DNA of 63,992 bases, the filler included, from a bacterium (GTDB taxonomy: Bacteria; UBA9089; CG2-30-40-21; SBAY01): the NCBI GenBank assembly GCA_040757115.1. It is 4 parts of 4 records of this genome, joined end to end, with 100 filler letters (N's around TTAATTAATTAA, not from the genome) between each part and the next. Parts side by side here need not be neighbours in the genome. Positions count along the whole stretch, not along the records: positions 48,923 to 63,992 come from JBFLYA010000088.1; 3 more parts are not named here. One strand, given 5' to 3'. A program made the translations under genes and the position numbers. This document shows positions 48,823 through 54,352 of this stretch, piece after piece. The first letter of the stretch is position 1; each line of letters opens with the position of its first letter. The notes below the pieces were generated by a model. The model searched no databases. It had not been told where the DNA came from and was given only the letters and a program-made list of their open reading frames with translations.

Positions 48823-48922
48823 NNNNNNNNNNNNNNNNNNNNNNNNNNNNNNNNNNNNNNNNNNNNTTAATTAATTAANNNNNNNNNNNNNNNNNNNNNN
48901 NNNNNNNNNNNNNNNNNNNNNN
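48823..48922. other. Artificial contig linker
   Basis: N-run containing TTAATTAATTAA. Confidence 0.95.
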
Positions 48923-50540
48923 GTATTTCAACGCCTGTTCCAATTCCCCCATATCGCTATAAACTATGCCGATATTGCCCAGGTCAGAAGCCTCTCCCGA
49001 CAGATACCCTATCTGCTTATGGAGCTCAAGAGCCTGCTTATGGTATTTCAACGCCTGTTCCAATTCCCCCATATCGTAATAAACCGAGCCGATATTGCCC
49101 AGTTGATTAGCCTCTCCCTGCAGATACCCTATCTGCTTATGGAGCTCAAGAGCCTGCTTGAAGTATTTCAACGCCTGTTCCAATTCCCCCATATCGCGAT
49201 AAACTATGCCGATATTGCCCAGGTCAGAAGCCTCTCCCTGCAGATACCCTATCTGCTTATCTATCTCAAGAGCCTGCTTATGGTATTTCAACGCCTGTTC
49301 CAATTCCCCCATATCGCTATAAACCAGGCCGATATTGCCCAGTTGATTAGCCTCTCCCTGCAGATACCCTATCTGCTTATCTATCTCAAGAGCCTGCTTA
49401 TGGTATTTCAACGCCTGTTCCAATTCCCCCATATCGCGATAAACCAGGCCGATATTGCCCAGGTCAGAAGCCTCTCCCTGCAGATACCCTATCTGCTTAT
49501 CTATCTCAAGAGCCTGCTTGAAGTATTTCAACGCCTGTTCCAATTCCCCCATATCGCGATAAACCAGGCCGATATTGCCCAGTTGATTAGCCTCTCCCTG
49601 CAGATACCCTATCTGCTTATCTATCTCAAGAGCCTGCTTTAGGTATTTCAACGCCTGTTCCAATTCCCCCATATCGCGATAAACCAGGCCGATATTGCCC
49701 AGGTCAGAAGCCTCTCCCTGCAGATACCCTATCTGCTTATCTATCTCAAGAGCCTGCTTGAAGTATTTCAACGCCTGTTCCAATTCCCCCATATCGCGAT
49801 AAACCAGGCCGATATTGCCCAGGTCAGAAGCCTCTCCCTGCAGATACCCTATCTGCTTATCTATCTCAAGAGCCTGCTTGAAGTATTTCAACGCCTGTTC
49901 CAATTCCCCCATATCGCGATAAACCAGGCCAATATTGCCCAGGTGATTAGCCTCTCCCTGCAGATACCCTATCTGCTTATCTATCTCAAGAGCCTGCTTG
50001 AAGTATTTCAACGCCTGTTCCAATTCCCCCATATCGCGATAAACCAGGCCAATATTGCCCAGGTGATTAGCCTCTCCCTGCAGATACCCTATCTGCTTAT
50101 GGAGCTCAAGAGCCTGCTTATGGTATTTCAACGCCTGTTCCAATTCCCCCATATCGCGATAAACCAGGCCGATATTGCCCAGTTGATTAGCCTCTCCCTG
50201 CAGATACCCTATCTGCTTATCTATCTCAAGAGCCTGCTTGAAGTATTTCAACGCCTGTTCCAATTCCCCCATATCGCGATAAACTATGCCGATATTGCCC
50301 AGGTCAGAAGCCTCTCCCTGCAGATACCCTATCTGCTTATCTATCTCAAGAGCCTGCTTATGGTATTTCAACGCCTGTTCCAATTCCCCCATATCGCTAT
50401 AAACCAGGCCGATATTACCCAAGGCAGAAGCCTCTCCCTGCAGATACCCTATCTGCTTATCTATCTCAAGAGCCTGCTTGAAGTATTTCAACGCCTGTTC
50501 CAATTCCCCCATATCGCGATAAACCAGGCCAATATTGCCA
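48923..50540. repeat. 120-bp coding tandem repeat, about 13.5 units
   Basis: Every second 60-nt line of the listing repeats almost exactly. Confidence 0.97.
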
Positions 50541-51277
50541 ATGACTGTTGCTTCATTTCTGTAAATTTTGGCTCTTTTAAACAGTGGCAGGGCTATTTCA
50601 TAATACCTTAGCGCATCCTGGAAATTTGAAAGCTCCTGGTGAAGGTAGCCAATCTCAAAAGCCAGGTCAGCCTTTGCTTCTTCAGATAACGACTCTGCCT
50701 GAGTTCTGAAGGTTTCTGTCAGAGAGGCAAGCCTCTGCTCATTTTCCGAAGGTTCTTCTGCCTTTTGAGCAATTTCCCGGCGAACCTTTGCCTCATCTCC
50801 AAACCGGAAGACACCTGACTTAAATGTATAAAAATCCGGGGCTTTAAAGATAACCAGGTTTAAGAGAGAATCATCTACGAAGAATATCAGACTGAGATTT
50901 TGCTGACCGATTTTATCTCGGTTAAGGTTTATCCCCTGCAGAAACCGGCTAAGGCTCGGCTCATCTTCCCTGATAGAGACAATATCCCGGATTAAAAAGA
51001 CAGGTTTCAAACAGGGTTTGGGCTTGGTTAAAAAGTACTGCTCAATTTTGGCAAAGGGGTCAATTATGGTTGGCGACAAAAAGATAGAATAGCAATCAAA
51101 CTCCCTGGCCATCTCACTTGCGATTCTCTCAGCCAGTTCATTTTCTACATCCGAAGTTTCACAACTAATAAAAAAAAGGCAGCCCCGGTTTTTAAAAAGG
51201 CGGAGTTGATGAAAGAGGCGGGGAATCTGAAGTTCATCCTTTTTACGAAAGACAACTGTTTTATCAGGCTTTTTCAT
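48923..51277 (-). CDS. TPR protein with a degenerate NTPase-like N-domain and at least 13.5 near-identical 40-aa repeats (3' end truncated by contig end)
   Basis: GINLNRD...APDFYTFKSGVFRF N-domain; repeat GEAxxLGNIGxVYxDMGELEQALKYxKQALExxKQIGYLQ. Confidence 0.9.
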
Positions 51278-52580
51278 TTTGTTTAATCTTCCTGTATTCT
51301 TCTACATCTGATATTAATAAAGGATGGATATCGCACCATTCATCACCATTCATATATTCGAGGGCAAACAGGGAATGGAATAATTCTAAAGCTTCTACCC
51401 TATCCGGGCTGAGGAGTCTCTTGTGGTCATATATTTCAAGCAATATATCATAATAAGTACGGTTAAGGGCACGCTTTTTATTTGCCCGCTCTTCATTGAT
51501 AGCTGTTTCCATGTCAACAGTATCAATCTTTTTACCGCCCTGGACCCTTGAATAACTTGAGGCAGAGGCAATAAGATCAATTAAGGTACGGAACACACCC
51601 CCACTGGCATCTACAGCCATATTCAAGGCATTGTCTTCAATCAAATCCTTTTCCATCCGCTTAAACACAAGCTGTCGCAGGGTTTCTCTATGTTTTATAG
51701 CTTTTTCATCTTCTTTGCCATCTCTATCTTTCAACCTCAGATTACGCAGGACCTTTTGCCGCCCAATCTTGCTAACAATCACCGCACTCTTTGGTGAATA
51801 AATCATTGAGATAGGAATAGTAAGCAAGGCACTGCACTTAATATCGCCAATAATATTTCCCTCTTCAAAGAAAAGCTTTTCTGCCTGTGTGGGACCAGTC
51901 TTGTCCAGATCGTCTATAATCAGCAATATATCACGTGGTGTAATTGATAGTTTGATATTAAGGATAATATCGTTGACTAAATTACGCAGGTCAGTAACCT
52001 TAACCCTGTAAAATTCACGAATCTGTTTGCGTGTTTCAGACTGCAGTCGTACTTTTGCGAAAAAGTCAGCACCCAGTCTTACAAAAGGGAATTTGAAACC
52101 CGTCTTTGCCTCTACGCCTCCTCCAATTTCACCATTTCTTGCTTTTGTAGTAGTCTTTTCGATTTGCAACTTGTCGGTGAAATAGCCCTCCATCTCTTTT
52201 AAACGCTCTTGCAAATATCCCGGCAGAGTAGTGTTTGTTTTTTCTGCCTTCTCTAAAATCTTAAAGGTCATAGTGAGCAAAAAGTCAATAATATCTATAT
52301 CATTAATATCAAGCACTTCATTGGCGCTGTATTTAACCACTAAATACTTTGCATTAATTGCTTCATCATAGTCAATCTTGTTCAGTTCAGTTGACTTACC
52401 ATTGCCCGGATGTCCACCAAGGAGAAATTTTAGCCCCCGGTTAGTGGTCAGAAGGTCATCTTTGATTATCTCAATCTCCTTTCGTTCTGTCTCCACATAC
52501 CAGGGATCATCTTTTGGACAAAGGGGTTTCTGGCTATCGAAACAATTTATCACATCATCCAATTTAGAAGCCTTTGACAT
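51264..52580 (-). CDS. P-loop ATPase (KAP/STAND-like)
   Basis: GGHPGNGKST, LLIIDDLDK, SGGVFR, C-terminal LEYMNGDEWCDIHPL; overlaps the TPR gene. Confidence 0.88.
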   Translation of the reverse strand: MSKASKLDDVINCFDSQKPLCPKDDPWYVETERKEIEIIKDDLLTTNRGLKFLLGGHPGNGKSTELNKIDYDEAINAKYLVVKYSANEVLDINDIDIIDFLLTMTFKILEKAEKTNTTLPGYLQERLKEMEGYFTDKLQIEKTTTKARNGEIGGGVEAKTGFKFPFVRLGADFFAKVRLQSETRKQIREFYRVKVTDLRNLVNDIILNIKLSITPRDILLIIDDLDKTGPTQAEKLFFEEGNIIGDIKCSALLTIPISMIYSPKSAVIVSKIGRQKVLRNLRLKDRDGKEDEKAIKHRETLRQLVFKRMEKDLIEDNALNMAVDASGGVFRTLIDLIASASSYSRVQGGKKIDTVDMETAINEERANKKRALNRTYYDILLEIYDHKRLLSPDRVEALELFHSLFALEYMNGDEWCDIHPLLISDVEEYRKIKQNEKA

Positions 52581-52599
52581 TTAGCACCTCTTATATTAT

Positions 52600-52628
52600 A
52601 TTCTACCAAAAAATTAAGATTATGTCAA
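52600..52628 (-). promoter_or_regulatory. Promoter of the ATPase-TPR operon
   Basis: TTGACA-17 bp-TAGAAT, then RBS GAGGTG. Confidence 0.7.
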
Positions 52629-52646: not shown

Positions 52647-52857
52647 GTAACTATTCAGCCACAGATGGACACAGATGAAACACTGAAAATTCGTAATCCG
52701 TGTCCGTAGTTAGGCTCAAGGTTGAAGGCTGATGGCTGAAAATTCAGGTATAGTGCCTCCTGTCTCCTCTCCTTCTCCGTTTCCCCTTTTCTCATCTGTC
52801 TTCTGACCTCTGTATTTATCCGTGTTAATCCGTGTTAATCAGTGGCTGAATAGTTAC
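52647..52857. mobile_element. GTAAC-TIR MITE
   Basis: GTAACTATTCAGCCAC...GTGGCTGAATAGTTAC; no TSD visible. Confidence 0.75.
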
Positions 52858-52962: not shown

Positions 52963-53601
52963 TCACCCTTGCCGACCAGAATTTCCTCCCCATTTAATTT
53001 CTTTTACTTCTGACTCAAAAAAATCTTTTACTTTCGCCCAATCGATTTCAATCAACAGGTTAGGCATAGGTTCTTTGTCAGCATCATCAAAATAAGTTAA
53101 ACTTTTAAGAATGTGAATAATATTATAATTTACACTTTTATATTTTTCTCTAAAAAATCCTAATATTTCCCTGAGATGTCTTTTTTGTTGACAAATGACA
53201 TATAAATCAATAAAATCTCTTCGACTTCCTCTTGAGGAAATAGCATCCATCTTCATACAAGCAATATCTAAAATATCTGCTACTTTTATGCCCATAAAAT
53301 CTTTAGTTGAAAACAAAAGTGGATAGGGATATTTAAAAAAACTAACTTTTGTTCCTTCAAATATTCCTATAACTGTATTAGGTGACTTTTTTTCCAATAT
53401 AAAATCACCTTTTTCTATAAGTCTTTCTATACATAAATTAGTATCAATATCCATTGGTGTAAAGAAATCTAAATCCAATGATTGACGATGTCCTAATTGT
53501 AACGCTACTCCTGTTTCACCTACTAAATAATAATCCTTACATAGTAATCTTAATAATTCCATATTGGACTTTGTTGCTTTTGAAATGACCTTTTCAAACA
53601 T
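52963..53601 (-). CDS. AbiEii/AbiGii-family nucleotidyltransferase toxin
   Basis: YYLVGETGVALQLGHRQSLDLDFF, IACMKMDAISSRGSRRDFIDLY. Confidence 0.88.
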   Translation of the reverse strand: MFEKVISKATKSNMELLRLLCKDYYLVGETGVALQLGHRQSLDLDFFTPMDIDTNLCIERLIEKGDFILEKKSPNTVIGIFEGTKVSFFKYPYPLLFSTKDFMGIKVADILDIACMKMDAISSRGSRRDFIDLYVICQQKRHLREILGFFREKYKSVNYNIIHILKSLTYFDDADKEPMPNLLIEIDWAKVKDFFESEVKEIKWGGNSGRQG

Positions 53602-53855
53602 AAAATTTCCTCTTTATTTAGGTCAAAATATAGGCGCCAGAAATTAGCACTTTTAGGAGATAGTCTTCGAGTGTGCAAAAGTGTATTTTTAATTAGCTGT
53701 ATAGAAAAACTCTTTATCATCCAGAAAATAGCCTTTTCATCTCCATATTCTAATATTCGCTCAATGATAAAGTTAGAATAGTTATCTTTATTTAGAGCTT
53801 CGAATGATATATCCCAGAAATATTTTTTTAAATATTTAGGCAACCTATTACTCAC
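53550..53855 (-). CDS. DUF6922-like partner (antitoxin) of the AbiEii toxin
   Basis: KKYFWD...FIIERILEYGD...LSPKSANFW. Confidence 0.8.
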   Translation of the reverse strand: MSNRLPKYLKKYFWDISFEALNKDNYSNFIIERILEYGDEKAIFWMIKSFSIQLIKNTLLHTRRLSPKSANFWRLYFDLNKEEILCLKRSFQKQQSPIWNY

Positions 53856-53885: not shown

Positions 53886-54352
53886 GTAACTATTCAGCAT
53901 ACCAAGCAACTAGGAAGTAGGTAGTAGGTAGTAGGTAAGTAGGAAAGGGATAAAGGATGTGCACGGTATTCCTCTTCTGGGGACAATGTCTCCCCTTTCC
54001 TACTCTCCTACTTCCTACTTTCAGGGAAATCCCCCATTTCACTGATGCATTACCTTAGTTCTTCAAGAGATCCCTGGCTTATATTATAGGCATTTAACTT
54101 ATTCTTTATGCCTTGTTTCTTAAAACTTTCTGCAATATTTGCTGGAATAGAAACAGCCGCTTTGCACATCTGTTGCACCAATCCATATTTTTCTTCAGTT
54201 GGGAAGTTTTTGGTTATTTCGTATATTCTTATCACTAAATGATGGCTTTTTTGCCATACTACAAGTTGTCTAAAATCATCTAACTTCTCATTCATTTTCT
54301 TTCCCTTTCCTACTTCCCTACTCTCCTACTTTCCTACAGGGTGAATAGTTAC
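53886..54352. mobile_element. GTAAC-TIR element carrying a truncated four-helix-bundle gene
   Basis: GTAACTATTCA...TGAATAGTTAC with a perfect 8-bp TSD ATTTATAG. Confidence 0.85.
54050..54295 (-). pseudogene. Four-helix-bundle protein (23S rRNA IVP-like), 3'-truncated
   Basis: FRQLVVWQKSH...FPTEEKYGLVQQMCKAAVSIPANIAES...ISQGSLEEL, stopping at 81 aa. Confidence 0.85.

Follow-up and report, generated by a model that had tools for sequence, protein, structure and literature searches.

A Widespread Two-Gene Module of an ORC/Cdc6-Like ATPase and a Dead AAA+ Domain Followed by Repeats, with a Possible Role in Biological Conflict

Layout of the Gene Pair

The window analysed here is the whole stretch of 63,992 nucleotides, joined from four records of the genome assembly GCA_040757115.1 (an uncultivated bacterium of the lineage SBAY01), and the element in question is a pair of genes on its last contig, C450. 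The first gene (51264..52580, on the minus strand, as are all features of the pair given below) is an open reading frame (ORF) for an ATPase of 438 amino acids (aa). The second (48923..51277), which shares a 14-nt overlap with the first, codes for a partner protein of at least 785 aa that is stop-free up to the contig end, where it is cut by the assembly. The contig begins at position 48923, and positions 48823–48922 are an N-padded joint between contigs; because of this, the genes to the left of 48923 belong to another contig and are unrelated to the pair. Together, the two genes are a real, widespread, and unnamed module. An ATPase homolog with 70% identity carries the source label Candidatus Desantisbacteria.

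The ATPase Has an ORC/Cdc6-Type Predicted Fold and Lacks a Conserved Arginine Finger

The conservation of the ATPase was followed in 58 aligned homologs, drawn from the best 120 of the 533 found, and in a second alignment of 84 ATPase–partner pairs. In the Walker A motif (residues 56–63, 52392..52415), G56, G59, G61, K62, S63, and T64 are invariant in 58/58 homologs, and K62 is kept in 84/84 pairs. Positions 223 and 226 of the Walker B motif (residues 219–226, 51903..51926) are acidic in 84/84. Also conserved are the threonine of sensor 1 and the arginine of sensor 2, the latter (R331) in 77/84. The sequence-only reading that preceded this work had described both Walker motifs as intact, and the alignments bear this out.

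No Pfam or NCBIfam family matches the ATPase, and among the PADLOC models there are two weak matches alone, with E of 0.003 and 0.004, both to other systems. The homologs give weak matches to KAP_NTPase (26/58, best E 3.6e-9, the ATPase of the window itself having none), to AAA_16 (26/58), and to NACHT and NB-ARC (2/58 each). Sequence searches of PDB with the ATPase, the dead-domain profile, and the profile of the core insert (see following) returned nothing relevant. The AlphaFold2 (AF2) model, with a mean predicted local distance difference test score (pLDDT) of 91, consists of an AAA+ core, a lid, and a C-terminal winged helix. The best fold matches are Cdc6 (Z 16.6, root-mean-square deviation [rmsd] 4.8, 258 aligned residues), TnsC (Z 15.8), and archaeal Cdc6/Orc1 (Z 15.7); these are tied within about one Z unit, and MuB is also among the matches. 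Structures of NOD-like receptors (NLRs), namely a plant NLR and Apaf-1, rank lower, at Z 13.2 and below. As a fold assignment alone, the modelled ATPase is an AAA+ protein of the ORC/Cdc6 clade, with core, lid bearing the sensor-2 arginine, and winged helix. This last domain (residues 374–422, 51315..51461, delimited by the secondary structure of the model) is acidic, with a median net charge of −2.5 and a median isoelectric point of 6.0, and closes with a histidine-proline motif (H419 in 60/84).

The arginine finger of AAA+ proteins sits between sensor 1 and strand 5. No conserved arginine is present in this stretch of the ATPase, where the most that any column reaches is 16/58 in one alignment and 34/84 in the other.

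The Partner Starts with a Dead AAA+ Core

The ORF downstream of each ATPase was taken from 113 loci and 20 longer stretches, leaving 98 after deduplication, in which longer stretches replaced short loci. The N-terminal domain of the window's partner matches 50/98 of these ORFs on its own, and the iterated profile 95/98, a figure that leans in the profile's favor, as it was built on the same set. Among the 4,854 ORFs of all loci, every profile match is either a partner or an additional copy of the domain; more widely, it finds 7,026 clusters at 50% identity.

The domain (residues ~10–160, 50798..51250) lacks a P-loop, an acidic Walker B, a lid, and a winged helix. Its AF2 model (mean pLDDT 93) is a five-stranded AAA+ core in which the P-loop is shortened. 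Cdc6/Orc1 structures lead the fold matches (Z 11.8 and 11.7, rmsd 3.6 and 3.2, 148 and 143 aligned residues), and the list of matches consists of AAA+ and STAND domains throughout. Hence, the domain had been rightly described as a degenerate NTPase. Its size, given as ~200 aa, needs correction, as the domain spans ~150 aa and is followed by a linker helix. A Pfam scan of 86 dead domains gave single weak matches alone.

Conservation concentrates on one face of the domain, where N117, R120, and D148 are each kept in 78/86 sequences. Position 153, just before strand 5, is basic in 60/86 (arginine in 49, lysine in 11). In profile–profile comparison of the ATPase with the dead domain, the Walker B and sensor-1 strands align at a probability of 2.6%; this gives no support to a direct descent of the dead domain from the partner ATPase.

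The Two Proteins Are Tightly Linked and Predicted to Form a Complex

In 78/83 pairs, the start of the dead-domain model lies no farther than 150 nt from the ATPase stop. The distances among ATPases and among dead domains correlate with r of 0.78 over the 84 pairs (shuffled maximum 0.14), which attests to shared inheritance alone, since relatives have both genes in common and the comparison included no control gene. The predicted complex of the ATPase with its partner scores 0.61, the best control scoring 0.00, in agreement with the two-component reading that had been proposed. The mark used for complexes is reached by 116/157 solved complexes and by 2/215 mismatched pairs. Separate runs share at least 95% of their contacts, with a partner pLDDT of at least 84. 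On the partner side, the modelled interface consists of residues 117–125 and 136–156, which hold two conserved motifs. On the ATPase side, it comprises residues 58–59 (P-loop), 227–229, 331 (sensor 2), and 399–404 (winged helix). The dead domain is thus predicted to dock over the nucleotide face of the ATPase.

Of the two proteins, the dead domain alone keeps a basic residue at the finger position, and by analogy it would supply this residue in trans. The precedent is BrxB, an inactivated AAA+ domain that contributes its R182 to the pocket in which BrxC binds ATP; BrxB–PglZ lifts the ATPase rate of truncated BrxC ~2- to 6-fold (PMC13326643). We infer the finger role of residue 153, rather than read it from the model, because this residue is not among the named interface residues and ATP is absent from the model.

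Partner Architectures Place the Dead Domain as a Putative Adaptor

A C-terminal effector, lost at the contig end, had been suggested for the window's partner. The relatives make this unlikely. Among complete partners of the TPR (tetratricopeptide repeat) type, that is, those without a second P-loop, 50/57 have at most 80 aa beyond the last TPR that was detected; the other seven continue for more than 80 aa, one with ParB domains and one with a 400-aa tail without Pfam match. The closest complete partners, with 663 aa (genome G005), 491 aa (P0277), and 447 aa (locus L004), each terminate in a TPR and a cap. Further near-identical units or a cap like that of G005 are on no contig of the genome, and the contigs of the best-matching groundwater metagenome run, a possible source, are short inside the array, with no exit from it. 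No RNA run is listed as holding the sequence, which bears neither way on its expression.

A scan of 54 downstream proteins (threshold 1e-6) found TPR families in 44, WD40 in four, NACHT alone in one, and nothing in four. The remaining one is a CRISPR RAMP protein and not a true partner. At its locus (L073:7836-10678), the family ATPase lies within a type III CRISPR-Cas operon, and the partner is a remnant of ~30 aa in frame with the RAMP gene. No HEPN or GT4 effector is among the matches listed for the 54 partners (E ≤ 1e-6), the 3′ end of the window's own gene being missing.

The repeat protein of the window has no Walker A motif. In 21/84 pairs, the partner carries a second, intact Walker A behind the dead domain and is a complete STAND receptor. 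These partners are of the nSTAND1–WD40 (cyanobacteria), NACHT (Chloroflexota), and NB-ARC–TPR types, some with an intervening cyclase domain, and the presence of the second Walker A requires four changes on a FastTree tree of the ATPases that has many long branches. The N-terminal slot of such receptors is the place of an effector or an adaptor (PMC4986451). Since the dead domain heads complete STAND receptors, its position looks like that of an adaptor with the ATPase downstream, not that of one half of a split NLR. From these architectures the dead domain looks like an adaptor coupling sensors to the ATPase, which fits better than a split receptor.

The carriers of the dead domain are varied. 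A word-index search for long carriers found nine proteins, and some carriers bear SIR2 and TIR, cyclase, or 2H-phosphoesterase domains. Some loci have a second dead-domain gene, bare or with TPRs, beside a single ATPase. The genome of the window has one intact ATPase and two dead-domain proteins. The second of these (G000:C334, L132:3137-7864, minus strand) has 1,575 aa, combines a dead domain with cyclase-like, NTPase, and WD40 regions, and lies among housekeeping genes. It has lost its ATPase, whereas its counterpart in G001 retains one in front.

Other arrangements were seen along the way. At L004:2-1942 (minus strand), 6 kb from the ATPase pair, a gene open at the locus end codes for a dead domain, a TPR-like stretch, and SIR2-like and TIR domains. 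In P0123, two tandem dead domains precede a STAND-type NTPase. Anaerolineae loci, including L018, L033, and L039, have a second dead-domain gene upstream, either stand-alone (140–160 aa) or with TPRs, and their neighbors include response-regulator, kinase-like, and MraZ-like genes (recognized by sequence, without a scan).

Evolution of the Repeat Array

The TPR array (48923..50680) is made of 40-aa units, and its DNA is near-identical from 48923 to 50539, with a 120-bp period, 13.5 copies, and 93% matches. In the protein there are 15 units, including a divergent first and an incomplete last one. The array is thus as homogeneous as had been noticed from the sequence. Among the 12 full units of the window, 7/40 amino-acid positions vary, mostly as multi-base codon alleles that are also found in G001 and G005. 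These positions presumably correspond to 2, 3, 9, 12, 24, 30, and 31 of the TPR consensus, according to our mapping; TPR position 13 varies in relatives.

In G001, the ATPase gene is 98.9% identical to that of the window, yet the nine units there differ in register by 2–11 nt of the 120, and eight units of G005 form a cluster of their own. The likeness to repeat diversification in fungal NLRs (PMC4986451), which had been drawn earlier, holds in these respects. When the window is compared with G005, the ratio of nonsynonymous to synonymous polymorphism (pN/pS) in the dead domain is 0.25, which contrasts with the within-array values given below. The pattern fits shuffling and concerted evolution of the repeats with relaxed or site-specific selection, as a description rather than a formal test of positive selection. 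Base 48965 differs in every read-run contig that covers it.

Distribution

Matches occur in 15/41 related genomes, with up to six per genome, and in none of the 16 most distant. Among species-representative genomes there are at least 575 loci, and the 80 retained include Chloroflexota, cyanobacteria, Acidobacteriota, and archaea. In the close relatives G005, G006, and G010, the neighboring genes differ. The partners in relatives are often broken, being reduced to 93 aa in G006, to 284 aa in G010, and to 647 aa in G001, the last by an inverted-repeat element. This patchy and multi-copy distribution, with repeats that vary, differs from that of a single-copy housekeeping gene with invariant repeats. 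On mobile replicons the family is scarce: it occurs in five of 72,556 plasmid records, and viral contigs gave one weak partial match in 62 candidate stretches.

Clustering in defense islands is not evident. PADLOC models (1e-12), run on 134 of the 183 listed flanking genes of 38 loci, match 13 genes in ten loci, mostly through generic domains.

Comparison with Known Systems

Of the systems described so far, the nSTAND2 two-gene operon (PMC8195603) comes nearest; it is mobile and has an active STAND-like ATPase with a winged helix followed by a gene for an inactive NTPase with TPRs. This order is also present here. In nSTAND2, an arginine finger is kept in both proteins, and a winged helix and an effector (HEPN or GT4) belong to the inactive partner, whereas here there is a bare dead core, no conserved finger in the ATPase, and usually no effector. 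Up to E = 1, the nSTAND2 profile PF20702 matches neither the locus nor four related genomes with the pair; it does pass the cut-off elsewhere in the same genome, at G000:C178:4685-5209 (plus strand).

The BrxC–BrxB proteins of type I BREX (PMC13326643, PMC12839542) share with the pair an ATPase of the ORC/Cdc6 clade and an inactivated AAA+ domain. In BREX, this domain completes the ATP pocket of its partner in trans and bridges it to other proteins; for the pair, docking at the ATP pocket is suggested by the predicted complex. In contrast to BREX, there is no methylase, PglZ, or other BREX gene here, and repeat sensors follow the dead domain in the same chain; BrxC also has its own arginine, unlike the ATPases of this family, which have no conserved one. 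The BrxB profile PF08747 has no match at the pair loci in five genomes; the iSTAND profile PF19995 has none over the cut-off in the same number of genomes and none at the pair loci. No MoxR or vWA genes were recognized beside the pair of the window.

Avs/AVAST proteins (PMC13581612) and fungal NLRs (PMC4986451) have in common with the pair the TPR or WD40 sensors, the near-identical repeats, and a STAND-related ATPase. Their single-chain architecture of effector, active STAND, and repeats is not found here, where two genes are involved: the sensor of the window has no active NTPase or enzymatic effector, and the ATPase is a separate, Cdc6/TnsC-like gene. The KAP/YobI NTPases and Tmn (PMC13001434) resemble the family in an insert in the P-loop domain and in sensing by repeats, and some homologs, though not the ATPase of the window, match KAP_NTPase weakly. 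Tmn is its own effector, a membrane oligomer that drains ATP, with two transmembrane helices and the sensor in the same chain (PMC13001434). In our family, by contrast, the inserts fall below transmembrane hydropathy (0/84) and the sensor is a second protein.

A description of the family was not found in the literature. The pair does not appear in the available parts of PMC7159879, PMC12839542, 10.64898/2026.10.19.760177, and PMC13581612, although the supplementary clade tables of the last may include the ATPase. Pfam, NCBIfam, and PADLOC hold no model of its own for the family.

The Core Insert and the Possible Outputs of the ATPase

Between Walker A and Walker B, the ATPase core has an insert of ~60 residues (residues ~135–192, 52005..52178), a candidate membrane-inserting hairpin in which polar and non-polar residues alternate and two arginines are conserved (R184 in 63/84 and R188 in 81/84). 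The β-type hydrophobic moment, averaged over 84 sequences, has its maximum for the whole protein in the insert, with 0.61–0.64 at residues 173–192 and 0.48 at 150–157. When the best 12-residue window of alternation is compared along each protein, the insert equals or beats all other regions in 19/33 proteins and strictly beats them in six; random stretches of the same length do so in 6.4 proteins on average and in 11 of 33 at most, the 33 proteins being hand-picked as non-redundant. AF2 renders the insert as a disordered loop and a helix. It offers no helical transmembrane span (0/84 reach a 19-residue mean hydropathy of 1.6) and no sequence match to pore formers in PDB or Atlas, a Pfam scan of 33 inserts giving single weak matches. 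MACPF proteins and cholesterol-dependent cytolysins have segments that start as helices in the monomer and turn into membrane hairpins. That the insert may likewise form a membrane-attacking hairpin or pore is a tentative suggestion, which we consider doubtful.

A fuller version of this idea, equally doubtful in our estimate, is a relay of AAA+ proteins resembling the inflammasome, in which diverse sensors would share a dead adaptor that licenses the finger-less ATPase to oligomerize, upon which the insert would refold into a β-barrel pore. If so, the ATPase would be switch and killer in one, and the sensors would range from bare TPR arrays to NACHT, NB-ARC, and nSTAND1 receptors. An insert that formed a pore would define a new class of cell-death executor.

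A Sensor–Adaptor–ATPase Switch and Its Alternatives

Our preferred interpretation, whose chances of being right or wrong we consider evenly balanced, is a sensor–adaptor–ATPase switch of the biological-conflict type with the ATPase as the output. The TPR array would bind its trigger (probably a protein of foreign origin), and the reshuffling of units seen in the assemblies would vary the specificity of the array. The dead AAA+ domain, docked as predicted over the nucleotide face of the ATPase encoded next to it, would give this ATPase the missing basic finger in trans and so control the ATP cycle and assembly, as suggested by the conservation and by the BrxB–BrxC precedent. The ATPase itself, and not a domain that follows the repeats, would then be the output, most likely through either oligomerization and membrane attack by way of the amphipathic insert or a drain of ATP leading to growth arrest. 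Other sensors with a dead domain, such as the cyclase–NTPase–WD40 protein of the same genome, could feed the same ATPase. The immune role of the pair is what we infer from these sequences. Of the two-component innate-immune receptor that had been proposed, the coupled two-gene unit stands; the ATPase is better read as a recruited downstream component than as the nucleotide-binding half of the receptor.

Several observations weigh against the switch. Concerning the immune role, two clades look vertically kept (24 Chloroflexota rows and nine cyanobacterial WD40 rows), 4/38 loci were judged plausibly defensive, without a baseline, and there is no known effector family in the operon. Within the array, pN/pS is 0.77, 0.94, and 0.50, all below 1; variable positions 2, 9, and 12 coincide with groove positions, seven of which are given for TPRs in PMC1261162, and the other four do not; and the order of the units comes from short-read assemblies, in which it could be scrambled. 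Concerning the finger, residue 153 is missing from the named interface residues of a model made without ATP, the window's own residue at this position is a lysine, and a pair of AAA+ proteins may pass the complex benchmark through likeness to solved ORC or BREX complexes. As for the insert, it is not top-ranked for alternation in the window's own ATPase, and the spacing of its hydrophobic residues is as compatible with an amphipathic helix as with a strand.

The alternative that survives best, a minority possibility that deserves to be taken seriously, is a non-immune signaling or assembly module, in which the TPRs would serve as a scaffold that holds a protein or complex of the host for remodeling by the ATPase, like scaffolds of the ORC/Cdc6 or BrxC type. 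The rarity of defense genes among the flanking genes, the stable clades of Chloroflexota and cyanobacteria, the two-component genes that adjoin Chloroflexota loci (recognized by sequence, without a scan), the near absence from viral contigs, and the rarity on plasmids all agree with it. It accounts less well for the lineage of the window, in which the pair shifts position, decays, and reshuffles its repeats, and for partners with NLR-type architectures or with SIR2/TIR or cyclase domains.

A split NLR, in which the ATPase would be the nucleotide-binding domain of the receptor and the effector would be at the lost C-terminus or encoded elsewhere, we regard as unlikely. The active P-loop and the winged helix ending in a histidine-proline motif are what such a domain would have, the plant NLR and Apaf-1 are among the fold matches, and the gene of the window lacks its 3′ end, with a minority of complete partners having long tails, one with ParB domains. 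Yet a cap closes the nearest complete partners, the best folds are Cdc6, Orc1, and TnsC, and, as 21/84 partners own a STAND domain, a second nucleotide-binding domain for the receptor would be redundant. Most improbable is a DNA-directed system in which the dead domain nucleates a TnsC/MuB-like filament of the ATPase on invading DNA, in the manner of TniQ/TnsD or inactive ORC subunits: the TnsC, MuB, and Orc1/Cdc6 folds, the arginine pair R184 and R188 of the insert, and the nucleic-acid binding proposed for inactive STANDs by Kaur et al. (PMC8195603) speak for it, but the winged helix is acidic and docks the partner in the model, and no transposase or nuclease was recognized beside the pair in 20 extended-locus gene maps examined by eye, without a family scan.

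Should the dead domain be an adaptor within the sensor–adaptor–ATPase switch, it would supply the missing output step for many seemingly effector-less bacterial NLR-like proteins, including the cyanobacterial nSTAND1–WD40 ones. The family is large by either count, of loci or of dead-domain clusters, yet without a database model of its own.

Upstream Region and Neighboring Genes

Upstream of the ATPase gene, a purine-rich run (52585..52591) kept in 5/5 aligned upstream regions is the ribosome-binding site. It is preceded by a candidate promoter of the sigma-70 type with an extended −10 (52600..52628), with 11/12 matches and a TG. The count of such promoter-like sites (two) is no more than chance (1.2 ± 1.1 in shuffles), and the site is identical in G001, substituted but kept in G005, and absent from G006 and G010. 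Of the two overlapping genes with their own promoter that had been described, the overlap is confirmed, and the promoter is reduced to a promoter-like site, partly conserved. A second such site (52574-52602, plus strand, 11/12) covers the start codon of the ATPase gene and is directed away from the operon.

Further upstream lies a gene pair (52963-53855, minus strand) coding for a DUF6922 protein and an AbiEii-family nucleotidyltransferase, the latter over the Pfam cut-off for AbiEii and with a GC content of 29% in the toxin gene. It had been taken for an AbiE-type toxin–antitoxin pair adjoining the operon. The nucleotidyltransferase is indeed there; the AbiEi-type antitoxin family has no match upstream, and a link with the operon is not borne out. 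As a part of the system the pair was rejected, given the other neighbors in G005, G006, and G010, the inverted-repeat element in between, and the 29% GC against 39.5%. In G001, the AbiEii-type gene sits on a short contig of its own, which speaks neither for nor against linkage. From its sequence context, the AbiEii-type pair is most likely a chance neighbor.

This pair is flanked by two inverted-repeat elements, one of which separates it from the promoter. Miniature elements with shared terminal inverted repeats are found in the window at 52647-52857 and 53886-54352, and at L114:3300-3541. The element at 53886-54352 holds an ORF for a four-helix bundle of the 23S rRNA IVP family. By pattern count, there are 259 such inverted-repeat-bounded elements in the genome, and one like them cuts the partner gene of G001. 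On another contig of the window (C442, 39981-42161, minus strand), the product of one gene has a SLOG domain and matches a TIR-type effector model weakly. The adjoining gene codes for a protein whose N-terminal part has two hydrophobic segments, and the two genes are possibly a separate defense pair.

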